A stretch of 64,000 nt of DNA from a virus (IMGVR_UViG_2778261352_000001:1199-65198); one strand, 5' to 3'. Shown: positions 35,624 through 52,925, numbered from the stretch's first letter. Program-made: numbers and translations. The notes: generated from the sequence alone by a model not told the origin.

Positions 35624-36816
35624 TAATCATCATCCCCGTATAGCTTGCGGGTAACTTCTTCGTCTTCCTCCTCGTCTTCGTCCAGGTCTTGTTCCAGCCA
35701 TGGGTCGTTTGATACACCTTCAGTATCAACATCTCCATAACCGCCTGTATCAACGATATCGGCGATTTCTTCCCTACGTTGCTCAATCCACAATGCAGCA
35801 TCGGCGCGGCGGTTGGCGGCCCGTTCTCGCGCAACTTTGTCCAGATCTTCAAGAGAAGGGCCACCGACGGCAGTTTGCCTTTCCTCATCATCGGCATTTG
35901 TCTTAGGAGCACGCAGATCGGCTTTGATTTGCTCCAGCATCAGGGGCGGCACTTTCCCTCCATGCGCCTCGATGAATTCAGCCGCTTCCAGCACTGACCA
36001 GTTATTTTCACGCTTTCGTTCGTATGCCAGCTTAACAATGCCAGCTTGCCCCATAGATAAAGCGTGCTTTTCCGCCTCCCGGCTTTCTTTTCGATAGTTA
36101 TTGCGGATGCTGTAAATGGTGTTGATCAGGCTGCTTATCTGCGCGGAACAGCTGTTTAGCATGCTCGCGATACGGTATTCAGGCGGAGTACCTTCATCAT
36201 CGTCTTTTTGCTGATCGCGCATTTCCTGCACCAAGCGAATACACGTATCCCGGGCGTTCTCCAGCATAAGGAGATGAGAAAGAGACTTTTCCAGAAGAGT
36301 GGTTTCCAGAACATCAGCTCCGGAACGACGCAACATAGCGCGCGCGGCCTTCCGCGCTTCAACGTTATCTATCAGGTAATCGCCCGCTTCGAATTCAAAG
36401 CGTTCACCATCATCATCCAGGGTGTCGCGTTCCAGGCGATCACGTAAGGTCCGGTGGGCGCGGGTGATCACGTCATGATCATCTGAACGATCATTTATGC
36501 GCTTATTTTGGCGCTTCGCATTCCCGACTGCGGCACTGACAACGGCATTAACCCTTTGTTTTTCCGCTATTTCAGCCGCAATGTGATCACATGTATGTTG
36601 ATCATTAGAGTGATCAATGATCATGCTTTTTAGTGGCTTCCTGACTGGCTTATTTGGCTTGCGGCTGTCCGCTGTCCTGGTGTCTTCTTTGAAGGCACGG
36701 AGATAACGACGTGCAGTATTAGGGTTAAGATTAAACTCGGCGGCATACTGTGCGATGGTGTAACCACCATCTCGCGCCAGGCGAGCAAAATTCTTCTTGT
36801 GATCGTCCCAGGTCAC
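35623..36816 (-). CDS. pacA: terminase small subunit PacA
   Basis: 397 aa, contains pac hexamer clusters within coding sequence. Confidence 0.85.
36438..36623. other. pac packaging site (TGATCA/G hexamer clusters, 3 + 4, with GATC Dam sites)
   Basis: TGATCA at 36465, 36476, CGATCA 36489; TGATCA at 36584, 36599, 36611, 36618. Confidence 0.7.
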
Positions 36817-36901
36817 TTATGCTTCCTTTCGTAAAAACTCTTTTTGACGCGAGGGTAACGAAAGTCACATGTCAAAAGGCCCGGAACGGGCAAGCAATCA
36901 A

Positions 36902-37354
36902 TCAGATACGTGCGGATGTGGCATTACCGTAATGACGGTGCTGACGGGCCACCTTATTGAAAAGTTGACGCGCCATTACCCAAGGCTGGTGCTCCCGGCG
37001 TTCCTTTTCGTCCTGCGTCATATAGAGTTCGTTCTGGAGTTTTTCATCAAACCGGCGCGGTGCGCGGCTGCGGCGAAAGAATTCAGGGTTCAGAGAGTGG
37101 ATCTGAAATCTACGTGGGCGTGTACTATCGTCAATCAAAACAGACGAATACTTAGACACAGCGATAGCCTTTAAGCGCAGATAAACGTCGCGCTTATCGA
37201 CATCCAGATGCGGGTATTCCTTTTCAAGGATTGCTGCGAGTTCTTTCGCTGATAGAAGAGATTTAGTGCGGATCATGTAATCCGCAATCTCATACGATGT
37301 TATTCGTGAGTGATTTATTTCCATGAAGTGGCGTCCCTGCCAGTTAAGTAACAT
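36902..37354 (-). CDS. late promoter activator (Lpa-like, by position and size)
   Basis: 150 aa, immediately upstream of pacA. Confidence 0.5.
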   Translation of the reverse strand: MLLNWQGRHFMEINHSRITSYEIADYMIRTKSLLSAKELAAILEKEYPHLDVDKRDVYLRLKAIAVSKYSSVLIDDSTRPRRFQIHSLNPEFFRRSRAPRRFDEKLQNELYMTQDEKERREHQPWVMARQLFNKVARQHRHYGNATSARI

Positions 37355-37424
37355 CCTGTCACCTACTGATTAGCCCATGTCAACTAATCAACGTGGAATA
37401 TAATACCCTCGATTAAAGAAATAG

Positions 37425-37441
37425 CAACACATTAGAGCAAT
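37425..37441. promoter_or_regulatory. weak C1 operator-like site (13/17)
   Basis: CAACACATTAGAGCAAT upstream of lpa-like gene. Confidence 0.3.
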
Positions 37442-37442
37442 T

Positions 37443-38486
37443 TTATCTAACGCTCGACGAATGACTTGTGATAGCGCCGACTCCAAGCGCGTAATCAAAG
37501 AACAATCGTTGATGCATCGCCAGCCTGCCGTGCGTTTTCTCCCAATTATCGCGGTCACGCTCAATATCACGCTGGCATGACTGGCACAGAGGAATTGCGT
37601 AAATGTCATGCGCGCATAATCGACTATGACGAACGATATAAGGCGTAATGTGAGCGCCAGCTCCCGCAGCTCCACACCCACAGCATGGACGGGAAGCAAC
37701 AAAGTCCATGTACTCAGGTAATTTTAGCGATTGCAGTTTTGGTATTTTGAAATGCGCCATGCCAGGGTCGGAGTCAACATCCACAGGGCATACTTTTGCT
37801 CGCATCGGCGCGGCGCGTTCTTCCATCATCTGAACATATGCTGTAGCGCGATCGTCATACGGGCGAATATCCGCCTCTTTCAGAGGCCCGCTATCCTGCG
37901 TTGCAGTCTTAATCTTATTTATTGATATACGGCAGACTTCTTCCGGCATCAGGTGCATCATGTCGCGCATGAAAGCCCACCAGCACAGTTCCTGAATACT
38001 TAAATCATGGCCATCTGAAAGCCCCATTTCCTGACGGGCGACATCCAGTATCCAGTTAACGCGATTATTATGCAGCGTTTCTTTCAGCTCATTAAAACCA
38101 CGCATCCGGTAATGGTTATCGTGATGCCAGCACAACAACACCGCGCTATTGTCTCGTTCTGCGTGGACAATATGGTTGTCACACCAGCTACGATCTGCGG
38201 CCTGGCATTGTCCCTCTTTCCTGCGCAACCACGCCACCAGCGCGTCAATTCCACCAATACGGCGAAACAGTTCATCGCTGTTAAAAAACGGCTGCAACGC
38301 CTCATTTGTTGCCATGGTTTGCTCGGTAACAACGAGGCCGTCTTCCATGTGCTCGATTAACTCACGCGGCACCGGCTCCATAATAAATTTACGGCCAGCC
38401 TCCACCAGCTTTCTGACCTCCTGATCCACTTTGAACGTGGCGAGGCCAAGCTCTTTCTGTACAAAGGGAGTAATTACGGCTTTCAC
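37443..38486 (-). CDS. hypothetical protein (PdcB position)
   Basis: 347 aa Cys-rich ORF downstream of doc. Confidence 0.45.
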
Positions 38487-38513
38487 ATCACACCTTTCAT
38501 CACTGATTGGGCT

Positions 38514-38714
38514 TTATCTGCTGCCCGGCATTCTCTGTTTAAGCACAACCATTTCCTGACGGCATAACACAGCAATAGCGGTCCTGGCACCAATTTGCTT
38601 ACCAACCAGGTATTGCTTTACCTTGCGGCGACTCACGCCATCAAGAAGCATCTTTAACGCTTCACGGGACAATTTGTTGTATTTACGTGCCATTAATCTA
38701 CTCCGCGGAACCAT
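38514..38714 (-). CDS. small basic protein (PdcA position)
   Basis: 66 aa. Confidence 0.3.
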
Positions 38715-39078
38715 ACAATCTACGTAACGTGTCGGCGACAGAAGATACAGATATCTCTCCGGTCGCAGCCCCTACGGTAAGGTCTGCCAGTTCAGGTGAA
38801 TCAAATACCTGCACCCCGTTACGGCGTAGAAATAACAGCGCACTGTTTAGCGCGGTACGCTTATTGGCATCATTGAATATATGCCCTCTCGCTGTAGCCA
38901 CCAGGTAGGTGGCGGAGACTTCGAAAAGGTCGGTGATCTCTTCGTAGGCAACTCTGGCCTGAACTCTCCCGATAATGGCCTCTGCCCTACCCGGATCTGA
39001 CATTCCCGGCAGGCCGCCGTAGCGGTTTATATTCGCATCATGAAGCGCAATAAGTTCTTCCGGTGATATATGCCTCAT
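38698..39078 (-). CDS. doc: Doc toxin (Fic-fold kinase)
   Basis: 126 aa [17 protein letters not shown]..; overlaps phd stop. Confidence 0.95.
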
Positions 39079-39299
39079 TATCGGTTAACCAGTTCCTTGT
39101 TGGTGGAGTCCAGGGTGTCAAACAGGGATGCAAATTCAGCATCCAGCGCCGCTTTTTTGTAGGCTTCGAAAGTAGCCTTGCTGACAATTACTGCTGGCTC
39201 ACGGCCTCTGCGGGTGATTTCAACCTCTTCCCCGGCTTCAACATTGTTGAGCACTTCAGAAAGGTTGCCGCGCGCGGTACGGAAGTTAATGGATTGCAT
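39078..39299 (-). CDS. phd: Phd antitoxin
   Basis: 73 aa [40 protein letters not shown].. Confidence 0.9.
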
Positions 39300-39371
39300 A
39301 AACACCTCGTGTACTCGTTATGTGTACACAATTATAAACCTCACAGGCATAAAGCACCAGCTCTTTGCAGC

Positions 39372-39761
39372 TTAAATAACCGGACAATCATCAAACTCCC
39401 CACTTCGGGCATCATTGATGACATGAGTGATCACACCAAAAACAGCATTACTGCCCGTGCATCCATCGTCATCTACTGGTAATGCCTCTTTCTTCCCGGT
39501 GCTTAAATCCTCCAGGTGCTGGCGCGGATACTTTCGGTATCTCTTTATGCGATATTCACCCTCCATAGCGCACACAAGCAGAGAACCATCAACCGGAGTA
39601 AGCGAGGAATCAACCACCAGCAAAGCACCCTGCAATATTCCCTCACGGTGATGGCTATCAGCTGCCCGCATGAAGTAGGTTGCTGATGGATGCCTGATTA
39701 GTTGCTGATCAAGAGAAATTCGGCTTTCAACATAATCCGCCGCAGGAGAAGGGAAGCCCAT
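39372..39761 (-). CDS. humD: HumD (UmuD'-like)
   Basis: 129 aa, LexA/UmuD C-terminal peptidase-fold similarity; LexA box upstream. Confidence 0.75.
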   Translation of the reverse strand: MGFPSPAADYVESRISLDQQLIRHPSATYFMRAADSHHREGILQGALLVVDSSLTPVDGSLLVCAMEGEYRIKRYRKYPRQHLEDLSTGKKEALPVDDDGCTGSNAVFGVITHVINDARSGEFDDCPVI

Positions 39762-39782
39762 AGCGTTTTCACCTCAACAATA

Positions 39783-39798
39783 CTGTTCATTTATACAG
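39783..39798. promoter_or_regulatory. LexA (SOS) box CTGT-N8-ACAG
   Basis: CTGTTCATTTATACAG between humD and divergent gene. Confidence 0.7.
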
Positions 39799-39935
39799 TA
39801 TACATTAAAGAGACACCTTTGGTGCAAACGCGTTACGTACATCAACCACCGCTGATGATTTTGTGCTCTTTGCTACTATTCATCACCAACGGATCAGCGT
39901 AACCTCGTTGCCAATCAGTTAATAAGGAATTAGCT

Positions 39936-40520
39936 ATGCCTAATCGCATTCCTCTCGATCCTGTATTGCCCAAAAATTTTGACTGCACTCCTAACGAGAA
40001 ACGCTCTAAAACTCAGCTGGACGCCTGGTGGGACCATCCCTATGGGGTTACAGAACATGACGGGAAAATTGTTGTTTATTGTCTGAATGGTGGCGCGTGG
40101 GACCGTCCATCCGTGCTTGGTTTGGCAAATAACTATGATGAAGCCTGTGAACTTGCCGAAAGACAGCAGGCTAGATGGGTGAAAACACGTTCTGAACCGA
40201 CATTCATGTTTTCAAAAGAACCGCCATTTATACTGGCGAGGATGCCGCAGCGACCGGATCATCAACAAGAAATTGTTGCTGAATTTTCCTCAAGGGATGA
40301 GATGAATCTCTTCTCATTAAAGCAGGAAGAAAGGGATCGCGTCGAAGTGTCTCCAACTCTCGACCACAACCAGATGAACCTGGCCCAACTCGCCTGGTAC
40401 AGCAAAGAATTAGAGATGTCTATTGCCCGGCTTGAAAACGAAAAAGCCGCTATCCAAGCCCAGCACGAAGTAGTTCTGAACCGGATTAGAGAAATGCAAA
40501 ACGATAACAGGGGATTTTGA
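39936..40520 (+). CDS. hypothetical protein (SOS-box-proximal)
   Basis: 194 aa, C-terminal coiled coil. Confidence 0.45.
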   Translation: MPNRIPLDPVLPKNFDCTPNEKRSKTQLDAWWDHPYGVTEHDGKIVVYCLNGGAWDRPSVLGLANNYDEACELAERQQARWVKTRSEPTFMFSKEPPFILARMPQRPDHQQEIVAEFSSRDEMNLFSLKQEERDRVEVSPTLDHNQMNLAQLAWYSKELEMSIARLENEKAAIQAQHEVVLNRIREMQNDNRGF

Positions 40521-40883
40521 ATGGCTAAAATCGAGTACCATCGCGATCGCGGTAATTACCTGGAAATATACGATCATGAATCTCTTAACGATATCAACGA
40601 TGCGTTATATGAATACTGTGAAAAAATGAGCATCACAGATACACCTGATGCATTTGTCGAGCTACCGGTATATCTCCGCGACATCTATGCAATACGGACG
40701 CCGCCCGTATCGGTAATTCACATTGGCTATGTCCGCCTGTCCATCGAAGAAGATGAAGATCGTTATATCGTGCGCCACTATACATTGGACAGAAAAGAGC
40801 TTCCCAATGAATGGAACATGAGTAATTTCTACAACGGTGAATATGGCTTAAAACCCGCTAAGAATGGCGCGGGCATTGCGTAA
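40521..40883 (+). CDS. hypothetical protein
   Basis: 120 aa, abuts upstream gene. Confidence 0.45.
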   Translation: MAKIEYHRDRGNYLEIYDHESLNDINDALYEYCEKMSITDTPDAFVELPVYLRDIYAIRTPPVSVIHIGYVRLSIEEDEDRYIVRHYTLDRKELPNEWNMSNFYNGEYGLKPAKNGAGIA

Positions 40884-40894
40884 TAGCCTAACAA

Positions 40895-41134
40895 CTATTC
40901 TGTTTTCTGATATGCCGGATCGCTCCCTTTTGGCAACTGGAGGCTTAACTGCCTGTAGTGCCGTAGCCGTTCCATGAAATAGGCGCGCAGGTTTTCCGGT
41001 TGCTCACGGGCCACCTGCTCTGCAATCACCGGTATATTCAGTCGTTCTTTGTAAGCAACGCCGCTGGCGGCAAGGTCTACGTTCACCTTGTCTCGCTCTT
41101 CCTGGCTTTTAGCTGCAATATTGCAGTTGCTCAT
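40895..41134 (-). CDS. hypothetical protein
   Basis: 79 aa. Confidence 0.35.
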
Positions 41135-41136
41135 GT

Positions 41137-41409
41137 TTAAAGCTCACATTTCCAGATGGTATTCTGAACACCCGAACCGGGAGCGAGATGGGGATTAGCG
41201 TTCGCGCTATGCTGATATACGGCTTTAGACTTCCCATATTGCTGACAGGCTTTATCTGCGGTTTTTTGCAAGCTATCAAGGCCATACCAACCATCTGACT
41301 GTATGCTTACCTTTTCACCGTCGTTGTATTGCACCATTGCACACCCAGATATAGCCAGTATCGCGCCGACAATAACGCTTTTCCATAAAACTCTATACAA
41401 CATAGACAA
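41137..41409 (-). CDS. small lipoprotein
   Basis: Signal peptide with lipobox LAISGC. Confidence 0.5.
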
Positions 41410-41448
41410 AAATCCCCTCTGTGAATTGAGGGGATTTTAGCATGGTGA

Positions 41449-41736
41449 TCAGAGATCAGCTTTATGCAGAATTTTATCCACCAGCGATGTGATTTTTTCT
41501 GCCAGGTCATCATTACTTACCCAATCCTGGCGGGCAGCCAGAACGGGCGACAAAGTTAATATTAACTCTCGCCGTAATGATGCGTTCCGTGGTGCTAGTG
41601 GTGGTTTAAGCCCCTCGCTCCCTTGTATTTCTGGGGTATGCGGCTGATAGCCATTAATCATCCTTTTTTTCTCCATTTTCGGTGGGCGCGGACGCGGGAG
41701 AATCATGATTCCTTTCTCTTCCTGCATACTGGGCAT
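41449..41736 (-). CDS. hypothetical protein
   Basis: 95 aa. Confidence 0.35.
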   Translation of the reverse strand: MPSMQEEKGIMILPRPRPPKMEKKRMINGYQPHTPEIQGSEGLKPPLAPRNASLRRELILTLSPVLAARQDWVSNDDLAEKITSLVDKILHKADL

Positions 41737-42011
41737 GTGTTCTCTGTGAAATATGGGAAACTATTATCCAGCTCATCTACCCACTGTTTATGGTCGAAGC
41801 AGAAAAATATCTCCCACGGCATTCCATATTCTTCCATCCATAGGCGGATCTGCATTTCTATTGGAATCGGCGGTATTGCAGACACCATATCAACAGGATA
41901 ACAGTTCAGACGACGTTCCAGTTCTTCTACTCTCTTCTGGAGATGAAATATCCGATCCAGATGCACACGCCGCTCCCGTGCCATTTTAAAATAAAGCTCG
42001 CCGGTCATCAT
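41703..42011 (-). CDS. hypothetical Cys-motif protein (paralog A)
   Basis: C-terminal ..PWEIFFCFDHKQWVDELDNSFPYF..CPVC. Confidence 0.4.
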   Translation of the reverse strand: MMTGELYFKMARERRVHLDRIFHLQKRVEELERRLNCYPVDMVSAIPPIPIEMQIRLWMEEYGMPWEIFFCFDHKQWVDELDNSFPYFTENTCPVCRKRKES

Positions 42012-42376
42012 TAACTCCTACATTCAGGGCAAGAGTTCCCTTCCGCAAAATAGGGGAAACTGCTATCAAGCTCATCACACCATCTGCGATGGTCGTAGCA
42101 CCAAAACGCCTCCCACGGTGCACGGAAATACTTCATCCACCAGGACACTCGATCAGGTATATCTGCTGGTGGCAGCTCTTCTGGCAATAATTTGCCTGAT
42201 AATTCCCTTTCCGCCCGCGCCAGCATTCCTTTTAGACTCGCATTCTCTTTTTCAAGAATCTCTATGCGCGCCTGTAACTCAGCTTTCGTTGGCATGGTCC
42301 GCCTCATGCTTTTCAGCCACCAGCGGCAATAAAGCCCTGGCCATCTTATGAACCAATAGTGCATCAATAATGCCAA
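42011..42376 (-). CDS. hypothetical Cys-motif protein (paralog B)
   Basis: C-terminal ..PWEAFWCYDHRRWCDELDSSFPYF..CPEC. Confidence 0.4.
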   Translation of the reverse strand: MALLMHYWFIRWPGLYCRWWLKSMRRTMPTKAELQARIEILEKENASLKGMLARAERELSGKLLPEELPPADIPDRVSWWMKYFRAPWEAFWCYDHRRWCDELDSSFPYFAEGNSCPECRS

Positions 42377-42959
42377 GCGTATGCCCCGGCTTAATGTTTA
42401 ATGCCGCCTCAAGGTGACACCTTTCCAAGCCACTTTTCTCGGCTTGTTTATGATGATCTGGCGTAATAACGTCGCCCAAAACTCGGCTAATTCTTTCTCG
42501 TAATTGCTGGGTGCCAGCACACTTGATCGCTGTATCGTGGAGACGGTTAACCAGTTCGCGATAAACATGCGGCTTAATGCGGATACGTTCACCGGTGACG
42601 CCCTTTCCTGGCGCTGGCACCGAACTATCCGGAATATCCGGATAGTTGCCAGCCTCGTAAGCTACCCGCAGCCAGTGCATGAATGTTTCAGTGGACACAC
42701 AACCACAGTCCACATCGATTTTTCCGCGTTGCTGTTCCAGCCACTGCTCAAAATTCAATCTACACGTATTACTTTCATGTTGCTCTTTTTGTCTCAAGGC
42801 CAGTACCTGTTGGGCCAGTTCCAGAACGATACCGGGTGACGCTAACCTCTCAAATTCCAATAAATAGTTTGTGTCAGGATGACAAGTAGCCTCGCCTGCA
42901 AAAAATACCAATTGCTGTAAGTATGCTGTCGTTAGAGTAGTCATTTCTTTTTGCGCCAT
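42279..42959 (-). CDS. hypothetical protein
   Basis: 226 aa. Confidence 0.4.
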   Translation of the reverse strand: MAQKEMTTLTTAYLQQLVFFAGEATCHPDTNYLLEFERLASPGIVLELAQQVLALRQKEQHESNTCRLNFEQWLEQQRGKIDVDCGCVSTETFMHWLRVAYEAGNYPDIPDSSVPAPGKGVTGERIRIKPHVYRELVNRLHDTAIKCAGTQQLRERISRVLGDVITPDHHKQAEKSGLERCHLEAALNIKPGHTLGIIDALLVHKMARALLPLVAEKHEADHANES

Positions 42960-43315
42960 TTCTTTTCACATTCCTTAGTCCATTTTTCAATGTTCATTTT
43001 GGCAATATCAGTCATTCCGTCACCCAAGAAATACTTTTTCCGGTATGTCTTGCACTTAAACCACACTACAACAGCCACCAGCCAGAAAATAAAAGGCCAT
43101 ACAGCAATACCAACGACAGCCGCGATAAAGCCCAATATCCATAAATGAAGCTCTCCAACTTCTGTTTCCGGCAATATTCTTAAAGAATTAAACAGCAGGC
43201 TGAACGAATGGTCGTATGCATTGGCAGTATAAGACATGCAATCCATATAATTAAAGTCATAGCCTGCGGCTGCCGCCCATAATGGGCGGTCAAGAAAATG
43301 TTTTAGTGTCATCAT
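42941..43315 (-). CDS. hypothetical membrane protein
   Basis: 124 aa, two hydrophobic helices, Lys-rich C-terminus. Confidence 0.4.
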   Translation of the reverse strand: MMTLKHFLDRPLWAAAAGYDFNYMDCMSYTANAYDHSFSLLFNSLRILPETEVGELHLWILGFIAAVVGIAVWPFIFWLVAVVVWFKCKTYRKKYFLGDGMTDIAKMNIEKWTKECEKKWRKKK

Positions 43316-43321
43316 ATAAAT

Positions 43322-43711
43322 TTAAGGTTCAGACCAGTTATCTTCAATAGCAATGCTTAATCTTTGTAGCCATTCTGCTAATTTCAGCATTGCTTCTCTT
43401 TCGCTTAAACCACGAGGAAAATCATCAAGCGAAATTGTTGGCTTGAAGCCCCCGTAATTATCCATTTCAACAGTCAGATTTTGCTCCAGCACGGTATTCC
43501 TTACGCGGCTATTGTGCCGAAGCAAATATACTGAACGTGATTTATTGGTTTTATGGTCAAACTGATATTCGGTAAGTATCATCTGGCTTTTGCCATGACT
43601 ATTACCTCTCCACATACTTACCTCACTTAATAAAACAACTCCATACGTAGTTGATGATTTTTTCCCACGTAATATAAATCTGCACTCCGGCAGTAAAACC
43701 AAAGCCAACAA
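43322..43711 (-). CDS. hypothetical protein
   Basis: 129 aa. Confidence 0.35.
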   Translation of the reverse strand: MLALVLLPECRFILRGKKSSTTYGVVLLSEVSMWRGNSHGKSQMILTEYQFDHKTNKSRSVYLLRHNSRVRNTVLEQNLTVEMDNYGGFKPTISLDDFPRGLSEREAMLKLAEWLQRLSIAIEDNWSEP

Positions 43712-43793
43712 TTGCTGAAAAAATCAAAACATTTACTTTTGACATTATAAATTTTCTCTCGGTGTCGTAGGTGATAGCACCATAATTGATAAT

Positions 43794-44045
43794 TTAGTGA
43801 GTTAGCAGCTCCATTTTTTGGATGATTTCCGCATGAGCATCATCGTTATCAACACTTAACTCGTTTAATGCCTCTCGCACCACATCAACTTCTTCTGGTT
43901 GGAAGAAATCATCTCGGTAGTCACCAAATAGAACCGAAACAAGCCTGCCACCAGCAACATCAAGATTGGCGCTAACAGGTGGCTCTTTACCATCCTCAAA
44001 TTCGACTACAAAAGTTATTTTTCCCATCGTTACCACCAGCGACAA
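43794..44045 (-). CDS. hypothetical protein
   Basis: 83 aa. Confidence 0.35.
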   Translation of the reverse strand: MSLVVTMGKITFVVEFEDGKEPPVSANLDVAGGRLVSVLFGDYRDDFFQPEEVDVVREALNELSVDNDDAHAEIIQKMELLTH

Positions 44046-44109
44046 ATTGAATACAAACCCAGTGCTGCCGCCATCACAATTCCTACCGTGGTGAATGCTT
44101 CAGGCCAGC

Positions 44110-45381
44110 TCATTGATTCACCTCCTGCGGCGGTTCTGGTAGCGGCATCCAGTGTGACGGTTTCCACGACGCACCAGGAATTATCCACCCATCATTAGCG
44201 TCAGGATGCCCCGGGATGTAAGTAGCCCATTTCATTCGCCAGTCACCTTTCCTGTCAAACTCCACGGCAACAAGAACGGCTGTTTTGGTATTCGGCATTC
44301 GCTCACTACAGCTTATCCAACCATCCGGAGTTACCGGAGAGTTGCCAGCTAGTCTACGCAAAACAGCCTTAACAGCCTCAATACGGTCATCATCGCAACT
44401 TTCCAGCGTATCTATGCGATCGAGCATGATGATGGCGTTATCAATATCAGGATTGCCGGTCCACTCATTACCGCGATTGGATTCGGCAGCCTGGTTGCCA
44501 GATGCTGGTTGATTGTCGGCATGGCTATAGCTAACAGCACGGCAGGCATCCTCAACGCCTTTAACTGCATCTGCGCAGTAGTTATAGCGATTGCATTCCA
44601 CTAATTTCCGTTTGAGTTTTTCAATTGCCTGCGCGACATCAGCCTGTATTACCGGAACTGGCGGAACGGCTGTTTGCTCTCGAACGTCATTAGTCGCTAT
44701 CGGTTCTGCTGCCAACTGACTGGCATATTTGTTAATGGTAACGATAAGCTCTTGCTCAGCCTCATCCAGACAATCATCGATACCTCGCCTGTCACCGTCA
44801 AAATCATCGAAATCGGCACGAATCTTGGCAACCTTCAGGATTGCGGACAACACCTCACTAGGAATTACCGGATAGTTGGTTGACGTTTCCGCGATTTCCC
44901 GAAAATTATTGGTTGACGAATTCTTGTTTTCCCGAAAGTTTCCGGACTGAAGCATGGCGTCGCTCCGCTCTATACCATCCAGCGCGATTCGCAGTGCCTG
45001 AATTGTGGTAGAGCTATCGTTTGGGGCTATTCCATATCGCTCGAATACAGCTAAATGGTTGCGCATAATCTCAGGCGTAAGCTCTTTGTAAGCATAAGCA
45101 AGAGGCTCTGATGCATTATCCGGCACAACCGACGCAGGCGCGGCAGCATAAACAGGAATAACGTCCGCTTGCTCTTTATTGCTTTCATCCGTTAAAGCCC
45201 AGAATAATTTCCCGGCCGGATGTTTGAAAATATAAGCAACTGGTTCTGCTTCCAGTGATGCCAGCGCAATTTTGTATACTTCCAGATCCATTTGTGCAGT
45301 TACTAAATCAGGATAACGATCCATAACCGTTATATTGCGCTTAATCATCTCTATTAATTGTTCTTTAGTAAAAGTGGTCAT
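44110..45381 (-). CDS. phage protein with DUF551-like C-terminal domain
   Basis: C-terminal ..SHWMPLPEPP motif; N-terminus paralogous to 45814..46200. Confidence 0.5.
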   Translation of the reverse strand: MTTFTKEQLIEMIKRNITVMDRYPDLVTAQMDLEVYKIALASLEAEPVAYIFKHPAGKLFWALTDESNKEQADVIPVYAAAPASVVPDNASEPLAYAYKELTPEIMRNHLAVFERYGIAPNDSSTTIQALRIALDGIERSDAMLQSGNFRENKNSSTNNFREIAETSTNYPVIPSEVLSAILKVAKIRADFDDFDGDRRGIDDCLDEAEQELIVTINKYASQLAAEPIATNDVREQTAVPPVPVIQADVAQAIEKLKRKLVECNRYNYCADAVKGVEDACRAVSYSHADNQPASGNQAAESNRGNEWTGNPDIDNAIIMLDRIDTLESCDDDRIEAVKAVLRRLAGNSPVTPDGWISCSERMPNTKTAVLVAVEFDRKGDWRMKWATYIPGHPDANDGWIIPGASWKPSHWMPLPEPPQEVNQ

Positions 45382-45391
45382 TCGTTATGCC

Positions 45392-45631
45392 TCAATACAC
45401 AAAATCTGTTTTAAATTCATGGTTACATTCTGGACAGCATGTTTCGTAACCTTTTATTTCTTCACATGCCTGTTTTGCTCCAGAAAATTCCCAGAAATCT
45501 GGATCACAAAGCAGATCGAAATTGTGACCGCATTTTGGACATTCGGTATCAAGTGACAGATTCCAGTAAGCAGTGGTGTTTTTATCCATATCAGTCTCCT
45601 TTACCCGCTGCTTTCTCCTGCTCTTTAGCAA
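45392..45631 (-). CDS. zinc-ribbon small protein
   Basis: CPKCG..CCPEC. Confidence 0.4.
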   Translation of the reverse strand: MLKSRRKQRVKETDMDKNTTAYWNLSLDTECPKCGHNFDLLCDPDFWEFSGAKQACEEIKGYETCCPECNHEFKTDFVY

Positions 45632-45854
45632 GCCGCTCCGCTTCTCTGAAATCCCAATCCACTCGATGTGCTATATCAATTGCAGAACGCACGGTCCGTT
45701 CAATTAGCGTGTCCAGATTATCAATTGTCATTGCCATATCTGGATTGCGAGATAAAATCTCCGCCCTCTGAATCTGCCAGTTGTTGCAGGTTTCAAGTAA
45801 TGAGTTAGCCATATCACTTTCCTTTCCCATGAAGCATAGCCGCGCGGCAGGCAT
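45591..45854 (-). CDS. hypothetical protein
   Basis: 87 aa. Confidence 0.3.
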   Translation of the reverse strand: MPAARLCFMGKESDMANSLLETCNNWQIQRAEILSRNPDMAMTIDNLDTLIERTVRSAIDIAHRVDWDFREAERLAKEQEKAAGKGD

Positions 45855-46200
45855 TCCAGCCTCTTACCTCTGCAATAGCGGCAACAGCATCAACCGCGTA
45901 CATGCTAAGAGGATTAGGCATTGGTTTTTCTTCCGGTACTACTGGAACGGGGGGAGCGGCGTAGACCTCAATAATTCCATTATCAATAGGCCACTCCCCA
46001 TCCTTGATGTAGTCACTTGTGCCGTCAACTTGCTGTTCTGCAATGTGGAATGCACCTATTGGTTTTGCTTCCAGCGATGCCAGAGCAATTCGTGCCAGTT
46101 CTTCCGCTTCTTCTGCTGGCAGTACAACGTTGCTACCAGGTCCGTATGTTTCGCGCCACTGCTGGATTGTCAGCAGGCGTTCTTTGGTAATAGTGATCAT
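45814..46200 (-). CDS. hypothetical protein (N-terminal paralog of the DUF551 protein)
   Basis: ALASLEA motif shared with 44110..45381. Confidence 0.4.
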   Translation of the reverse strand: MITITKERLLTIQQWRETYGPGSNVVLPAEEAEELARIALASLEAKPIGAFHIAEQQVDGTSDYIKDGEWPIDNGIIEVYAAPPVPVVPEEKPMPNPLSMYAVDAVAAIAEVRGWNACRAAMLHGKGK

Positions 46201-46325
46201 GCTGCGTTTCCTTCTTTCTTATTAACAATTACACCGTCATATATTTCATTAAGGTGCCCTCTCAACTCCATGCGCCTTAATGCAGATAACATGTAATCGC
46301 ATTCAACCTGCTTATTTCCAGTAAA

Positions 46326-46398
46326 TGGCTTATCGTCAGGATTAACGGACTCGAACCGCTGACATCCTGCTTACAAGGCAGGCGCTCTACCAACTGAG
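46326..46398 (-). tRNA. tRNA-Thr-like (anticodon UGU), acceptor stem not pairing
   Basis: D arm GCTCAGTTGGTAGAGC, anticodon arm CCTGC-CTTGTAA-GCAGG, T arm AGCGG-TTCGAGT-CCGTT; 5' GCCGGTT does not pair with 3' AATCCTG. Confidence 0.45.
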
Positions 46399-46400
46399 CT

Positions 46401-46476
46401 AAACCGGCATTGGCGATGGTGGATGGATTTGAACCATCGACCCGTTGATTAACAGTCAACCGCTCTAACCACTGAG
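46401..46476 (-). tRNA. tRNA-Asn (anticodon GUU)
   Basis: Manual cloverleaf: acceptor GATGGTG/CACCATC, anticodon loop CTGTTAA, T loop TTCAAAT, encoded CCA. Confidence 0.85.
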
Positions 46477-47154
46477 CTACACCATCACTTGCCGGGTACG
46501 TCTCCGGCGAGGGCTTCCACCTCCGTATGCTTTTCGGCGCACCGCGCCCTGACTGCAATTCGGTAACAGGGGATGCATAACCCTGGCTTCCAGCGTGATT
46601 AGCGCCTTCAGCATGACGGGATATACCCGTAAATTCGTGGAACTGTACCCAAAGTGCTGTTAAGCACCGCTGTTACGCTGAAAAGAAGACGCAACAGGAA
46701 AGGACGCTGACCAACAGATGGCCCCTTCTCGTTCATCTGGTTAATCACACCAGCGCCCTTACCTGTTGTGCCTCCCCGTTCCCTAATACACAGACGGGGA
46801 CACTCTGTGGTCGATTTTTTGACGGGGGACGACTCATACCCCGTGGCGTCTGGCTTCTTAGGCCGCTACCATCATCAGATCATCGTTTGCATTTACTTTA
46901 ATGGTCAGTTTCTAAACCGCCGCAAAGTCGCTAACCATGACGAAAACCCTGAAAAAAACGCCCACCCGAAGATGGGCAAACTGGAAGCTCGTAACGCACT
47001 TCGGTGTTGCCACTTAGGCGCATGGTCAACCTGGCAACTCGGCGTCATGAGGGGGAAGGAGTCACTACCCCGCCATACTTGCCGCCGCGCCTGTCGCGGC
47101 TAACAGCTAAATCGCTCTATAAATCACGATTCATTGAGGCGATATTACACTAAT

Positions 47155-47171
47155 AAATTTATTAGAGCAAT
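47155..47171. promoter_or_regulatory. C1 operator, exact 17/17 consensus (reverse orientation)
   Basis: AAATTTATTAGAGCAAT overlapping dmt stop codon. Confidence 0.75.
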
Positions 47172-49426
47172 ATCGCCATAACGTCATGAGCAACACCACG
47201 AGTGTCTCCCTTACAAGACACAGAACGTCTGGCAAAGAGAGGTTCCACTCTGAAGCCTCTGTCCTGATAAAGTTCTCTGATGTTTGGCGCGCCACTGTTA
47301 GTAATGAGTACCTTTGCACCTCGGCGATGAGCATCCGTCAACAGAGACACCAGGCGTTTTTGCTCTTCAAACTTAAAGTCATGACCGGAATAGTTCGTGA
47401 ATCCCTCTGTATTTGGAAGCGGTTCATACGGCGGATCACAGAAGATGACATCTCCTTCTCCGGCAGCTTCAATCACCGCAGCAAAATCACCACATACAAA
47501 CTCAGAACGCCCTTCCGCACCGAGGAAGGCTTCCATCTCCTGTAATGGGAAATACGGAGTTTTATACTTCCCATAACCGACATTGAACTCACCGGCCTGG
47601 TTGTAACGCGTCAATCCGTTAAAACAATGTCGGTTCAGGAACAAAAACGCCGCTGCGCGATGTAAATCATCATAGACTTGTTTGTTAAACGCATTCCGTA
47701 CTGCCAGGTATCCTTCCTGTGTGTTGTAGTCCTGGAAAAACCGATGCGCCAGTGTGATAAGTGAATGCGCCTCGCGTTGCAGAGTCTTGTAAAAGTTAAT
47801 CAGGTCAGCATTCACATCATTTAGCAGATTTTCCTGGTATCCGGCATTCGTGAAGACAGCTCCGCCACCGACAAAAGGTTCGATCAGGCGCTTCCCTTCT
47901 GGCAAATAGCGAAAGATTTGTTCCAGAACACCAAATTTTCCACCAGCCCATTTGAATATGGACCGTTCGAATTCTGCCGCTGGTTTAACTTTTCGCTCTT
48001 TTGTTTCACTTCCTTCTTTCTGCCGACATACGGCCTTAGTAATTCGATCGCCAATCCAGCGCATTACTGGTATTGCCATACTATTGCCGATCGCTTTGTA
48101 ACGCGGTCCGTCAGCTGCAAGCATCGCGGCCTCTTCTTCGCTTAAATCTGGATAGTGATTGTGCAGATATGCCAGTTCATCTGAATTAACTTTTTTACGC
48201 TTTTCCGTAGGGATCAACGTATGCCCATCAGGAAAACCTTGAAGTCTCTCACATTCGACAGGGGTAAGACGGCGGACAGCTACTTCTTCGTTTCTTACTT
48301 CATAGCAAACAGCAGTTGGATTTTGAGCCATTAGAGATGGTGAAGTATTCTTAGTTGCTGCATGTTGTGTACCACTCATACGCTCAGGAAAAGCCAATGT
48401 AACAAGATGCTCATGGCTTTCTTGCTCACGCGCCCGCAATGTACCATGCCCTTCTGACCAAAAACCTGCTCCAGTGCTGCTAAAAACGGCAAGGTCAGTG
48501 GCATCTTTAAAGTCTCTTGCCTTTACTGTCGATGCGGTTTCATCGTCAATATATTCCCCAAATGCCGCCATCCTGAAACCGTTTACGGCTTTCGTCGATT
48601 TCATATCGGGGGACATGCCAGCGTGTAGGCATGGATTTAGGCTTTCGCCACTGATTGCAGCGCCATTTGCAGTAATGGCGGAAGCGATTTCCTTCTTTTT
48701 TCGGCTCGGCGCAATATTCCGGCGCACGCCTTCGAACTCAAAAAGTACCGTTGCGGGATCGAGGTCTGTTCGAGCACTTGCGACAACAAACACGCGTCGG
48801 CGTCGTTGTGCCACTCCGAAGTATTGGGCATCAAGGATTCTCCAGGCCACCTTTCGCTGCGGTCCATAAATACAACCACACTGCGGCCACTTTGGAGCAT
48901 GGCAACCGGTTTTGACATCCCACCGCCAGAACGTGTTACTTTTTCGTGATTCAGGTCGATCACCAGGTTCGAATGGCGCATCTTCTCCAGCCAATCCGGC
49001 AAGGAAACATCCGAACGCGTTGTCTGCTGATGACAGGACTCCTGGGACATTTTCCCAGACGATAACTGTCGGTTTGAGGAAGGACTCAGACCGTTTGTCG
49101 TCAATTGCATTTGCAAGCTCCACATACTTCAAAGTTAGCGCGCCGCGTTCATCATCAAGCCCACCACGTAAGCCCGCGATACTGAATGCCTGACAAGGCG
49201 TACCCCCGACGAGCACATCAGGGGCTTCAATTTCTCCGGCCTGGACTTTTTGGGCGAGTTTTGTCATGTCGCCAAGGTTCGCGACATGGGGCCAGCGGTG
49301 CGCAAGAACGGCAGATGGAAAAGACTCGATTTCAGCAAACCACGCCGGACGCATACCCAACGGTTCCCAGGCAATACTCGCGGCTTCAATTCCACTGCAA
49401 ACAGATCCATAGCACAGCTCTTTCAC
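47162..49426 (-). CDS. dmt: bifunctional DNA methyltransferase (C5-cytosine plus Dam-like N6-adenine)
   Basis: 754 aa; [12 protein letters not shown] and ENV motifs N-terminal, DPPY motif C-terminal. Confidence 0.85.
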
Positions 49427-50328
49427 TGCTTAGCCTCTCCACCAAGGGCATTTACCAGAGCATCAACCAGGCACGAAATTTCACTGGTCAACAGGAAGAA
49501 ATCTGCGTCCAGTCGCTGCGCAACATCTTCACTATCAATATCAGAGTTCTGCTCAAGCAATTCATCCGCAAATTTGACGCTGGTAAGGCTGAAGTTATGG
49601 TCCAGTGTAAATTTAATGCGGTTCTGCCAGTCGAGTGCCAACTTAGTGACGAGCTTGCCAGCTTCCAGGTGTGTGGAAATTTCATCGCTTCCCAAATCCT
49701 GCTTTTTCACTCGGGCAATACCGCCATCCTCAAGCACTGCCTTAAGTTCTGCCGCATCCCCCATTTGAAATCCCTGTGGAGCACTACCATCACGTACCCA
49801 GTCGGTCAGCGTTAATTCAATGGGATTTTCAACACTCAGGGGAACAACAGGAAGAGAACCCAGAGACTTACGCATAAGCGCGAGCATATCCTCAGCCTGC
49901 CGCGCGCTGGCATTGATATAGATACGTTTAGTTGAACCGTCGTAGATCGCCTGGATAACAGAAAACTTTGAAAAAGCCCGTGGCAGAAGAGAATGCAGAA
50001 CTTCGTCTTTCAGGGAGTCCTTCTCTGTTTTCTTCAGTTTACGCGCTTGTTCTTGCTCAAGTTTTTCAATTTTTTCTTGAATAGCTCGCTGGATAACCGG
50101 CGGGGGAAGAATTTTTGTTTCGCGCTTTGCTTCAACAAGGATAAAACCATTTCCATGCATAGCGATAACTTCGGAATTATCACCAAATGGCGATACAAAA
50201 CCGAACTTGGCCATATCCTGACTACCGCATGGCGTGAAAAGGATCATTTTCTTTTTATCTTCTAAGTCGGTCAGATCCGCCTCACGAGAAAGTTTATAAA
50301 TAGTAATGTTTTTCCAGTGCTTAAACAT
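49423..50328 (-). CDS. RdgC-like recombination-associated protein
   Basis: [16 protein letters not shown].. RdgC-like N-terminus; start at internal ATG preferred over track start 50442. Confidence 0.6.
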
Positions 50329-50677
50329 GTTGTAACCCTTGAATATCAACCACAGAAAGCTCGTCTTTGTAGAAAAAGGCCAGGTTGTGGCACCCCCTCG
50401 TTTGAGCGTATGAGCTGGGACCAATTTCGTTCTTCCAGACAAATGGCTTCAAATCCGTACGGCGAAGCATAAAAACGCGATTTGTTCCGCTCTGATTCCC
50501 AATGAGGCAAAAGCCTTCTTTCACCTTGATAGCCTGCAAGTTGTCGAGTTCACCGCTGGTTACACGGCTATCGAACTCCTTGCGGCTTATTAGCTCCATC
50601 TGCATCTGACGACTCCAAACAAATGCCCATTGAAGGGCGATGGCTGAATGGTACCGAAAACACGACATAAAAAACAA
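50321..50677 (-). CDS. hypothetical protein, first gene of C1-controlled operon
   Basis: 118 aa, operator at its start. Confidence 0.4.
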
Positions 50678-50693
50678 TATTTATTAGAGCAAT
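50677..50693. promoter_or_regulatory. C1 operator (16/17)
   Basis: ATATTTATTAGAGCAAT. Confidence 0.7.
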
Positions 50694-50774
50694 TTTATAA
50701 TAAGTAAACGCCATGTAGACCACAAACAACCTAAGTTAAAATAACGAAAATCAGAGCAAATCATTGGTGATAAC

Positions 50775-51059
50775 GTGGCAAGTATTGCAACAAAAGACAG
50801 CATTTGTTCGGGGCACGGAGGATTCCCATCCAGGCCTCCTGTAGAGAGTGAACCACTACTTAAAGTCAACGGAGTAGAAGTGTTAGTTGATGGTAAGCAA
50901 TATGCACAGCATACCGATGGAAACAGTACGCACGGTGGGCAAGCTATATCAACCAGGGCATGGTTTACCGTCAATGGTAAAGGGGTCGTATGCGTTGGTG
51001 ACCCTGTTTCATGCGGCTCTACCGTAGCATCAGGAGACGGCCTAGTTCAGGTAAGTTAG
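50775..51059 (+). CDS. PAAR-like spike-tip protein
   Basis: 94 aa with CSGHGG and VNGKGVVCVGDPVSCGS PAAR-type repeats. Confidence 0.5.
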   Translation: MASIATKDSICSGHGGFPSRPPVESEPLLKVNGVEVLVDGKQYAQHTDGNSTHGGQAISTRAWFTVNGKGVVCVGDPVSCGSTVASGDGLVQVS

Positions 51060-51067
51060 GAGATATC

Positions 51068-51856: not shown

Positions 51857-51868
51857 CAAAGGACTTCA

Positions 51869-52318: not shown

Positions 52319-52484
52319 TCACCCTGCCCCAAAAAGTGCATTTATGTGCAGGATGCCAGAGTTTAGCAGTGAATATTTTGATGATCTGCCAGCGTATATC
52401 CTCGATACAGAAACGATGCTGAGGGGGATTAACAGGAAGAATCGCAACGTCAATGATTACAACCGTGCTATCAGCGGTAACTAA
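52233..52484 (+). CDS. o-spanin-like lipoprotein overlapping the i-spanin gene
   Basis: MFASVFLLTLSGC lipobox, Pro-rich mature part, in alternate frame overlapping 3' end of 51869..52318. Confidence 0.4.
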   Translation: MFASVFLLTLSGCSGSRSANLTPTPTKVNHPAPKSAFMCRMPEFSSEYFDDLPAYILDTETMLRGINRKNRNVNDYNRAISGN

Positions 52485-52495
52485 AAGGAAAAACT

Positions 52496-52855: not shown

Positions 52856-52925
52856 TCAACTATAGAAATCGTAATATCAACACTCATGACTTTACTTTGG
52901 CAGGAAGCCACTAAGGACAAACAAC

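Follow-up and report, generated by a model that had tools for sequence, protein, structure and literature searches.

Very probable loss of ban and neighboring tail genes through a 19.3-kb deletion in a P1-like phage-plasmid

Gene content between hot and the tRNA genes

Within the window (the whole 64,000-nucleotide stretch analyzed), positions 40895 to 46200 are packed end to end on the minus strand with ORFs, 13 to 15 in all (Table 1). Public calls on an identical contig (L016) give 13 genes, encoding proteins of 128, 87, 65, 423, 77, 97, 124, 226, 94, 102, 95, 88, and 79 aa, and another two short ORFs, of 40 and 52 aa, may exist. The first-pass annotation had counted thirteen small minus-strand ORFs here, a number that agrees with the public calls, although "small" is wrong for the 423-aa DUF551 protein. 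At the edges of this interval, dmt is the final conserved gene ahead of the junction described below, with Pfam DNA_methylase and MethyltransfD12 domains on a protein identical to Dmt, and humD marks the boundary at which conserved P1 DNA resumes. The 120-aa gene between lxr and hot has no P1 counterpart by BLASTn (40504 to 40903).

Table 1. Features from dmt to humD, in window coordinates
Feature	Position	Strand	Basis
dmt, bifunctional DNA methyltransferase, 754 aa	47162-49426	-	P1 Dmt, 97.2% over 754 aa
Bivalent C1 operator Oban (Op72ab), overlapping ban promoters	47144-47171		Motif matches
tRNA-Asn (GTT), intact	46411-46486	-	ARAGORN; Rfam tRNA, 76.1 bits, model positions 1-71
tRNA-Thr (TGT), without last 7 nt (GGCACCA)	46340-46407	-	Sequence comparison with P1 and sibling
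3' remnant (about 47 codons) of 171-aa ORF	46197-46339	-	Comparison with intact loci
128-aa protein, N terminus paralogous to that of 423-aa protein	45814-46200	-	phrog_60/3323/5117/660
73- to 87-aa protein	45591-45854	-	phrog_10585, E 1.7e-42
65- to 79-aa zinc-ribbon-like protein, two CxxC pairs	45392-45631	-	Sequence; phrog_4173
423-aa mosaic protein, C-terminal DUF551	44110-45381	-	Pfam DUF551, E 4e-21, residues 354-419; phrog_14306/6847/60
77- to 83-aa protein	43794-44045	-	phrog_3876, E 6e-53
40-aa hydrophobic peptide, one predicted membrane helix	43623-43745	-	phrog_5525, E 1.7e-23; hydropathy 1.83
97-aa protein (129 aa from first TTG)	43322-43711	-	phrog_1258, E 3e-49, residues 33-129
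124-aa membrane protein	42941-43315	-	phrog_2638, E 4e-63; hydropathy peak 2.6, residues 66-84
226-aa protein, C-terminal half = P1 PmgU	42279-42959	-	phrog_21459; PmgU residues 1-101 at 95% (tBLASTn)
94-aa protein (121 aa from first TTG), paralog-pair member	42011-42376	-	phrog_3797, E 3e-57
102-aa protein, second phrog_3797 paralog	41703-42011	-	phrog_3797, E 1.6e-36
95-aa ORF	41449-41736	-	Gene call in L008 and L016
88- to 90-aa predicted lipoprotein	41137-41409	-	Lipobox, conserved Cys; phrog_7757
hot, DNA polymerase III theta homolog	40895-41134	-	Pfam DNA_pol3_theta, E 1.4e-33; P1 Hot 89% identical
120-aa gene between lxr and hot	40521-40883	+	phrog_5797, E 3e-76
lxr, LexA-regulated gene	39936-40520	+	P1 Lxr 95.8% identical
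humD, UmuD' homolog	39372-39761	-	P1 HumD 98.5% identical

The lipoprotein, membrane protein, zinc-ribbon protein, and two paralog pairs listed in the first-pass annotation were all recovered. The predicted lipoprotein has a signal peptide and a lipobox fitting [LVI][ASTVI][GAS]C (...LAISG followed by C; hydropathy 1.91, residues 6 to 24), in which G20 and C21 show 90% or higher conservation across 23 homologs; AlphaFold (pLDDT 82.7) models its mature part as two strands, a helix, and two strands. The hydropathy peak of the membrane protein is a Kyte-Doolittle mean over a 19-residue window. The zinc-ribbon-like protein carries CPKCGH...CCPECNH, with only subthreshold profile matches (Zn_ribbon_3, Rad50 hook, and the YnfU family). 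One paralog pair is formed by the two phrog_3797 proteins (52% identity over 54 aa, E = 2e-21), the 94-aa member of which has a conserved C terminus, W...CxDH...CPxCR, and the other by the 128-aa and 423-aa proteins (32% over 95 aa, E = 3e-7). The exact 128-aa protein is indexed in 209 collection blocks, while the 423-aa protein is common to lambdoid and Stx prophages, and Stx-converting phages match here. The region of the 226-aa protein aligns by BLASTn to P1 85182 to 85528, the sole trace of P1 pmgT-pmgV at this locus. The block genes are of the lambdoid early-region type.

Profile searches assigned Pfam DUF551, DNA_pol3_theta (hot; 114.9 bits against a gathering cutoff of 34.6), and PHROG families, all of unknown function, and returned no defense family and no NCBIfam family among the block ORFs. 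The 95-aa ORF had no family match in Pfam, PHROG, NCBIfam, or PADLOC. The earlier suggestion that this is superinfection-exclusion or defense cargo thus found no supporting match in PADLOC, NCBIfam, PHROG, or structure searches. In PADLOC-DB v2 (systems known in 2023), 14 of 15 block ORFs were matchless, and the sole match was of the 128-aa protein to PglZ (14.9 bits, E = 0.0016, 80 of 730 profile positions). A structure search with the lipoprotein model returned no neighbor at E < 0.08.

Upstream of the block, the Oban operator consists of an exact ATTGCTCTAATAAATTT at 47155 to 47171 (minus strand) and an inverted copy with 2 mismatches at 47144 to 47160 (plus strand), a position equal to that of P1 Obanab at the dmt 3' end. 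Ten C1-operator matches were found, against 0.24 expected by chance, and none lies inside the block.

The missing ban segment and its junction

No DnaB-type helicase is encoded in the window, as the first-pass annotation had remarked. tBLASTn with P1 Ban and the Ban of a sibling contig gave at best 22 bits (E about 2), no DnaB homolog was matched at E <= 1e-3 across the whole window, no protein with DnaB and DnaB_C domains was found, and among window ORFs of at least 150 aa PacB alone carries a Walker A motif. The gene is also missing from the start of the source contig. The first-pass annotation rightly placed P1 ban in this general neighborhood (P1 ban at 71295 to 72659, between trnT at 69426 to 69501 and hot at 86567 to 86830). 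Since its P1 site, from the tRNA genes to hot, is the position that the block occupies, ban does not simply lie beyond the window, and its absence is real and meaningful.

In P1 the order is dmt, trnA, trnT, plp, upl, tciABC, trnI, ban, dbn, 5, 6, 24, 7, 25, 26, pmgL-V, upfMNO, hot, lxr, humD. Apart from its reversed orientation, the window runs colinear with P1, with flanking proteins 96 to 100% identical (tBLASTn), and P1 69494 to 86588 is without counterpart except for a pmgU fragment: 25 P1 proteins from plp to pmgV (the PmgT/PmgU fragment excepted) gave no tBLASTn match in the window, nor did UpfM, UpfN, or UpfO.

A closer comparison comes from the sibling contig Logan SRR27130358_25, which matches window 46340 to 57426 with a single mismatch over 11,087 bases and window 36000 to 46344, block included, colinearly at 99.97% over 10,345 bases. 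Between these two matches (99.97 to 99.99%) the sibling has 19,257 extra bp, carrying a Band_7 gene, tRNA-Ile(CAT), ban, dbn, genes 5, 6, and 24, and pmgL-pap. The 454-aa protein at the syntenic site has DnaB and DnaB_C domains. The 2.2 kb between the two sibling pieces (L014 and L008) probably holds the rest of 24, 7, 25, and the start of 26, as read from plasmid pMB4926_2 and L004. The complete P1-like plasmid pMB4926_2 (CP134893.1; L003) has the same gene order with ban present, and against it the window shows a single gap, L003 25882 to 45164, with a 5-bp overlap.

The junction, at 46340 to 46344, is a clean deletion with a 5-bp microhomology, GATTA, common to both parental sequences. Window 45242 to 46344 corresponds to L003 24779 to 25881 and window 46340 to 47042 to L003 45165 to 45867; against the sibling, the L014 match stops at 46340 and the L008 match at 46344. 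An NCBI contig, NOOP01000024.1, has the same junction and is 100% identical to the window over 18,265 bases. Both breakpoints are intragenic. One lies in tRNA-Thr, which ends ...GAGTCCGTTAATCGGCACCA in P1 and the sibling and ...GAGTCCGTTAATC followed by CTGACGA in the window. Rfam aligns only model positions 4 to 67 of 71 (54.8 bits), and AATCGGC-A-CCA has become AATCCTG-A-CGA, with 3 of 7 acceptor pairs lost. Since foreign sequence now supplies the 3' strand of its acceptor stem, this tRNA-Thr is probably nonfunctional. The other breakpoint lies in a 171-aa ORF that in intact relatives sits ahead of, and overlaps, the 128-aa gene. Ten of ten examined loci with the exact 128-aa protein retain the upstream DNA, all ten match the window solely from locus position 9857 onward, and in seven of them the 171-aa gene is called (9489 to 10004).

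We therefore consider it very probable that a P1-like (IncY RepA) phage-plasmid lost about 19.3 kb in a single illegitimate, microhomology-mediated deletion, and that ban is missing because this event fused the block to a truncated tRNA gene. One breakpoint would have fallen within the phage tRNA-Thr gene, 7 nt short of its 3' end, and the other inside the 171-aa ORF at the block's upstream edge, joined at GATTA. Such a deletion would have removed the ban operon downstream of trnT whole (a 78-aa gene, the Band_7 gene, tRNA-Ile2(CAT), ban, and dbn), the baseplate and tail genes 5, 6, 24, 7, 25, and 26, then pmgL through pmgS, ppp, and pap, and finally the upstream third of the accessory region, which carries two Ead/Ea22-like genes and the block's usual controlling C1 operator. 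That operator falls in the deleted DNA (L008 6029 to 6045). The remainder, 41137 to 46200, is the usual, lineage-variable set of small genes ahead of hot. Oban is now the nearest C1-controlled promoter upstream; the C1-repressed ban promoter stands about 950 bp upstream of the block, with two tRNA genes in between, and the block may be cotranscribed from it once C1 repression is lifted. Because Ban is analogous to DnaB, host DnaB should suffice for replication of the plasmid from oriR, making ban dispensable; partition is still by ParAB and stabilization by Phd-Doc.

Alternative explanations and a possible recurrent breakpoint

Could the locus instead be a natural modular variant, in which a cargo module, perhaps for exclusion or defense, replaced ban and its neighbors at module boundaries? 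The region before hot is a recognized hypervariable region of P1-like phage-plasmids (PMC9603915), and the block has a lipoprotein, membrane proteins, paralogs, and a slightly low G+C content (45.7% versus 48.2% for the whole window). However, the breakpoints fall within a tRNA gene and an ORF, not at the edges of genes, the block has no credible PADLOC match and no named family, the lipoprotein model gives no structural clue, and the identical block stands alongside ban in the sibling and in many complete plasmids. Since the two coexist, the block is not a replacement; the 10.3-kb colinear stretch in the ban-positive sibling rules out a substitute for ban, and we regard the modular reading as highly improbable.

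A chimeric short-read misjoin between trnT and the block, the real plasmid being intact, deserves equally little credence. The source is a 65.2-kb draft contig, and it includes a repeat-rich invertible tail-fiber region that is difficult to assemble, but only 5 bp are common to the two sides of the join, too short for a de Bruijn-graph misjoin. Furthermore, the contig is without any gene of the missing segment, an index places NOOP01000024.1 in two samples plus one similar place, and a sister isolate has another deletion of the same kind. That the 19-kb segment of ban and tail genes was relocated to a part of the replicon beyond the contig is scarcely plausible. The contig is indeed open, its ends adjoining a YfjT-family gene beside pmgC and lying in repL, and the DNA between these ends (equivalent to P1 46.6 to 51.2 kb, or anything else) lies beyond it. 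Yet 65 kb hold no reciprocal junction and no segment fragment, no mechanism is apparent for transposing 19 kb without a mobile element at the join, and two other simple tail-gene deletions on the contig favor decay.

The sister plasmid, from the neighboring run accession SRR3975568, has 100% identical flanks and a different deletion, of about 9.4 kb rather than about 19.3 kb. The left ends of the two deletions, ...CCGTTAATC and ...CCGTTAA, lie within 2 nt of each other, and each deletion uses a 3- to 5-bp microhomology of the form G-N-TAA. It is conceivable, if rather doubtful, that the 3' base of the tRNA-Thr T-arm is a site-specific breakpoint in this plasmid lineage. If so, stalled replication at the T-arm hairpin, a nick specific to sequence or structure, or some comparable localized event would cause the adjacent ban-tail segment to be lost again and again and so drive phage-to-plasmid conversion.

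Tail lesions and comparison with P1-like plasmids

By its maintenance and immunity genes, the element classes as a P1-like phage-plasmid (Punavirus, P1 subgroup 1): RepA (IncY), ParB, and Phd are 100% identical to those of P1, ParA 99.7%, C1 99.6%, Cre 99.4%, and Doc 99.2%. Its virion set is incomplete, since tBLASTn finds no 5, 6, 24, 7, 25, 26, 16, R, S, U, tub, or pmgB. Of the missing genes, gp7, gp25, and gp26 belong to the best-conserved P1-like set (PMC9603915); the absent products also include the baseplate hub (gp6), tail terminator (gp24), and needle (gp5), and gp26 serves as a baseplate core protein (PMC9024508). Besides the deletion that took ban, a second one, bplA'-16-R-S', leaves BplA residues 1 to 150 only, fused to a tail-fiber C terminus, and a third, tub-pmgB-sit', joins pmgC to the final 187 codons of sit at a point 28 nt ahead of the window, so that Sit is present only for its last 177 to 187 residues. 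Although tub and pmgB map outside the window, the contig itself runs pmgC straight into the sit remnant. With three tail-gene deletions together, the element is a defective prophage that should be unable to assemble tails and probably survives as a plasmid alone.

Set against P1 (NC_005856), the locus is alike in Dmt (97%), tRNA-Asn, the tRNA-Thr body, Oban, Hot (89%), Lxr (96%), and HumD (98%), with equal gene order and strand relations in the flanks. It differs in that P1 has 17 kb from trnT to hot (plp to upfMNO), whereas the window has 5.2 kb, sharing only the pmgT/pmgU fragment, and in that P1 tRNA-Thr keeps the last 7 nt. The sibling shares the whole block (128-87-65-423-77-97-124-226-94-101-95-88-79 aa), and pMB4926_2 covers about 68% of a 39300 to 47300 query at 96% identity. 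Unlike the window, both keep the 19.3 kb from trnT to the 128-aa gene, with a DnaB-family ban and the tail/baseplate genes, and an intact 76-nt tRNA-Thr.

Most of the block is also present in many ban-positive P1-like plasmids, and pmgT-pmgU-pmgV-upfMNO-hot-lxr-humD constitutes variable region 8 of P1-like phage-plasmids, where in JL22 a cluster of unknown genes stands in for pmgT (PMC9603915). The block likewise lies before hot and consists of small genes without assigned function, a set that varies from plasmid to plasmid, but it is without its upstream part and C1 operator and is fused to the ban promoter/tRNA unit. The interval is the ordinary, lineage-variable accessory set that precedes hot in P1-like plasmids.

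According to Pfeifer and Rocha (2024, PMC10879196), P1-like phage-plasmids become plasmids through gene loss; they report 38 P1-derived plasmids, 9 of which have tail genes of just two kinds. The window element is another member of this already described kind, having kept replication, partition, immunity, and many head genes while losing tail genes. Resistance genes were not noticed on it. It differs from those plasmids in being early and nearly isogenic, with junctions that are legible base by base.

A 19.3-kb deletion beside the tRNA genes

Blastn against P1 (NC_005856) identifies the window as DNA of a P1-like phage-plasmid: long stretches match at 94 to 98% identity, with the orientation reversed, and the maintenance and immunity proteins match their P1 counterparts at 100% (RepA), 100% (ParB), 99.7% (ParA), 99.4% (Cre), 99.6% (C1), 100% (Phd), and 99.2% (Doc) identity.

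The first-pass annotation had reported no DnaB-type helicase in the window and had stated that P1 encodes one, ban, in this neighborhood. Both statements hold: two Ban proteins used as tblastn queries gave at most 22 bits in the window, and ban lies at P1 71295-72659, between trnI and dbn. Gene order in P1 runs dmt, Oban/Pban (the C1 operator and promoters of ban), trnA (Asn), trnT (Thr), plp, upl, tciABC, trnI, ban, dbn, 5, 6, 24, 7, 25, 26, pmgL through pmgV, upfMNO, hot, lxr, and humD, while the window has dmt, tRNA-Asn, tRNA-Thr, 135 nt, the accessory block, hot, lxr, and humD. Since the block follows the tRNAs after 135 nt and leads into hot, P1 69494-86588 is without a counterpart, save for a pmgT/pmgU fragment within a 226-aa ORF. 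Tblastn searches of the window found none of plp, upl, tciABC, ban, dbn, 5, 6, 24, 7, 25, and 26, nor pmgL-S, pap, pmgV, and upfMNO. Synteny with P1 places ban inside the interval now taken up by the block, and not simply beyond the edge of the window.

We considered whether the block replaced ban or whether ban was deleted beside it. Alignment to P1-like relatives, part of a check proposed at the outset, gave one ~19-kb gap at the border between block and tRNAs. In the complete plasmid pMB4926_2 (CP134893.1), the same block adjoins hot and is followed by Ead/Ea22-like genes, pap, pmg genes, and tail genes, beyond which lie dbn, dnaB (ban), TerB-type genes, and tRNAs. Window 45242-46344 corresponds to 24779-25881 of the retrieved pMB4926_2 locus and window 46340-47042 to 45165-45867, which leaves a single 19.3-kb gap with a 5-bp overlap. 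Exact-protein look-ups recovered a sibling much closer to the window than pMB4926_2, Logan contig SRR27130358_25, which shows 1 mismatch in 11,087 bases against window 46340-57426 and 99.97% identity over 10,345 bases against window 36000-46344; in contig coordinates, 19,257 bp separate the two matches. This extra DNA holds a 78-aa gene, a Band_7 gene, tRNA-Met/Ile(CAT), a 454-aa DnaB/DnaB_C protein, dbn, genes 5, 6, and 24, part of gene 26, pmgL-pmgS, ppp, pap, several small ORFs, two Ead/Ea22-like genes, and a 171-aa ORF; judging from pMB4926_2 and a further locus (L004), genes 7 and 25 probably lie in its middle ~2.2 kb. We conclude that ban was lost through deletion and was not replaced by the block, which is a normal variable region present in intact relatives. 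The absence of the helicase is meaningful, but nothing unusual is needed to explain it: a decaying P1-like plasmid has recently lost 19.3 kb through a microhomology-mediated deletion.

Breakpoints in tRNA-Thr

With a slash at the breakpoint, the intact tRNA side reads ...GAGTCCGTTAATC/GGCACCA, the intact block side reads ...GTTGGGGTAATC/CTGACGATAAGCC, and the window reads ...GAGTCCGTTAATC/CTGACGATAAGCC, with 5 bp of microhomology (GATTA) at the join. tRNA-Thr loses its last 7 nt, which breaks 3 of its 7 acceptor pairs, and the Rfam alignment of the truncated gene covers model positions 4-67 only; on the other side, only the last ~47 codons of the 171-aa ORF are left. Because both breakpoints fall within genes and the join carries short microhomology, the signature points to illegitimate recombination and not to an exchange of modules. 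To look for site-specific recombination or a nuclease barrier, the breakpoint was compared by eye with Cre/lox, Cin/cix, XerCD/dif, and Chi; the partner sequences showed no convincing site, and a Chi-like octamer has the wrong orientation.

The junction was located solely through an exact-protein look-up of Dmt, in NOOP01000024.1 (GCA_002519675.1, 65,198 bp). The window is positions 1199-65198 of this contig, which the index reports in 2 samples and which is 100% identical to window 39162-57426, join included. A 200-nt junction probe matched 0 of 5,426 complete E. coli genomes and 0 of 72,556 PLSDB plasmids, and the exact 35-mer of the junction was found in neither GTDB representative genomes nor IMG/VR. 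Among loci encoding the exact 128-aa protein of the block, all 10 examined keep the upstream DNA.

A sister plasmid, Logan contig SRR3975568_83, has flanks 100% identical to the window and different deletions. One, of roughly 9.4 kb, runs from trnT to gene 26, and its junction (11083-11089 of the sister locus, against window 46340-46344) reads ...GAGTCCGTTAA/GCCAGC from tRNA-Thr into gene 26 with microhomology TAA; its left end is only 2 nt from the tRNA-Thr breakpoint of the window. The other two deletions, each with a 5-bp microhomology, affect ppfA-hrdC and the stretch from pap into the middle of the 423-aa ORF. Neither plasmid can be derived from the other, because the sister keeps pmgL-pap and lacks the 128-aa gene through the first half of the 423-aa gene, while the reverse is true of the window.

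Two breaks so close together could point to the trnT 3' end as a general deletion hotspot. We reject this reading, since the 3' end is kept in all 58 IMG/VR P1-like loci in which a motif search found the P1-type trnT (2 with a 1-nt deletion), and since scans of three collections with a pattern for any break at this site were empty of other truncations, with no match in JGI metagenomes or IMG/VR and only an unrelated cyanobacterial tRNA in GTDB. The tRNA cluster itself is mosaic in 22 of 80 IMG/VR loci (3 kb downstream of dmt); the P1-type Asn-Thr pair occurs in 58 of the 80, and other layouts are Asn-Tyr-Thr, Arg-Tyr-Thr(-Ser), Asn only, Asn-Ser, and no tRNA. Several loci have breakpoints inside tRNA genes, including one (L083) that fuses tRNA-Asn to tRNA-Ile2. 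The shared trnT breakpoint thus remains a lineage-specific oddity. We can only guess at its cause, possibly microhomology joining after a stall at the T-arm hairpin.

Content and promoter context of the accessory block

The block had been described as thirteen small minus-strand ORFs. Public gene calls on the identical contig support the count, with sizes of 128, 87, 65, 423, 77, 97, 124, 226, 94, 102, 95, 88, and 79 aa packing the minus strand, although "small" does not fit the ORF of 423 aa. The predicted lipoprotein (its lipobox conserved in homologs), membrane protein, zinc-ribbon-type protein, and two paralog pairs (E values of 2e-21 and 3e-7) were all recovered. Profile searches of all 15 ORFs against Pfam, PHROGs, NCBIfam, and PADLOC returned only Hot, DUF551, and PHROG families of unknown function: 13 of the 15 belong to phage families, with Hot as DNA_pol3_theta, the 423-aa protein bearing a C-terminal DUF551, and the others in PHROGs of unknown function. 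DUF551 and related genes are common to Stx-converting and other lambdoid prophages. Neither PADLOC nor NCBIfam gave a credible match for the 15 ORFs. Lipoprotein homologs form a small unnamed family of 65 clusters, every one "hypothetical" and all from Enterobacterales; its AlphaFold model is confident (pLDDT 82.7), and Foldseek of this model against the PDB found no informative neighbor (best E value, 0.087; TM, ≤0.46). These searches lend no support to superinfection exclusion or defense, the role suggested in the first-pass annotation, which stays a hypothesis.

Oban, a bivalent C1 operator with the ban promoters, is intact in the window, and a search for C1 operators within the block found none. 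The sibling carries a C1 operator (1 mismatch) just after pap and upstream of the accessory region (6029-6045 of locus L008), which is deleted in the window. Retention of Oban and deletion of the native operator suggest that the block swapped one C1-controlled promoter for another, such that it would now follow the tRNAs within what is left of the ban operon. A strong terminator-like hairpin is found between Pban and the tRNAs. This hairpin ends a stretch annotated "dicF-like" in P1; an Rfam scan of 40800-47300 returned two tRNAs only, with the DicF-like region below the gathering score.

Elsewhere, the window lacks the EcoP1 res-mod restriction-modification genes known from P1, and a 202-aa ORF occupies their site; in pMB4926_2 the corresponding ORF carries a GNAT-family N-acetyltransferase annotation. 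A 364-aa ORF lies in the IS1/isaB variable region. Its product shares 36% identity with residues 11-274 of PacB (terminase subunit), so we take it to be a PacB-like paralog lying outside the pac operon.

Coordinates of features in the window and in its parent contig
Feature	Position	Strand	Remark
pmgC / sit remnant	L102 540-1171 / 1169-2500 (L102, stretch of NOOP01000024.1)		pmgC = P1 46628-45997; sit from P1 41551 onward
BplA fusion	window 887-1522		junction near 1331-1525
Collar-domain segment and tail-fiber assembly gene	window 1563-2602	+ (Collar segment)	
Seven Collar-type C-terminal cassettes	window 2608-5934	-	share ~200-nt repeats
Cin-like serine recombinase	window 5997-6578		74% identical to P1 Cin
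364-aa ORF	window 14325-15419	-	
202-aa ORF	window 28271-28879	-	
Accessory block	window 40895-46200	-	
Lipoprotein	window 41137-41409		lipobox AISG/C
Membrane protein	window 42941-43315		hydropathy peak 2.6
Zinc-ribbon-type protein	window 45392-45631		CxxC...CxxC
Microhomology at the join	window 46340-46344	+	
dicF-like stretch	window 46950-47045	-	
Terminator-like hairpin	window 46959-46978		
Oban	window 47144-47171		
dmt	window 47162-49426		

Decay of the tail genes

Decay extends well beyond the ban region. BplA ends at residue 150, where it runs in frame into a tail-fiber C-terminal (Collar-type) segment; relative to pZ0117EC0062-2, about 4 kb is missing, and the window has no homolog of genes 16, R, and U or of the N-terminal, constant part of S. 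Only two contigs are known to encode the 211-aa fusion protein, NOOP01000024.1 and Logan SRR3975563_369; the run number of the latter neighbors SRR3975568, so the isolates are probably from one study. A third deletion has its junction 28 nt before the window begins, where pmgC and the final 187 codons of sit meet and overlap by 3 nt; tub, pmgB, and most of the tape-measure gene sit are gone, and upstream of pmgC the parent contig carries a YfjT-family gene. Window 1563-6578 is a multi-cassette tail-fiber region whose layout resembles the Min multiple-inversion system of p15B, here without a constant S gene to fuse to. The roles of the affected products are baseplate hub (gp6), baseplate core protein (gp26), wedge proteins (BplA and R), needle (gp5), tail terminator (gp24), and tape measure (Sit), as described in Viruses 2022 (PMC9024508). 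From this gene content, tail assembly is predicted to be impossible for the element.

Ban is an analogue of DnaB and is dispensable in dnaB+ hosts, so P1 genetics predicts that its loss should not affect plasmid replication. Absence of ban should be read as a mark of decay and not of new cargo, and the case raises no new biological question, save perhaps the repeated tRNA-Thr breakpoint. The nearly isogenic intact sibling makes the deletion readable to the base, as a 5-bp microhomology join cutting a tRNA gene. For annotators, genes for replication, immunity, and the head can be enough to label an element a "P1-like prophage" even if it is incapable of forming virions or transducing, and a tRNA called by ARAGORN can be a truncated relic. 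The element is a cleanly resolved case of a P1-type phage-plasmid becoming a plain plasmid, and it is consistent with the described class of plasmids that derive from P1 through gene loss (Nat Commun 2024, PMC10879196).
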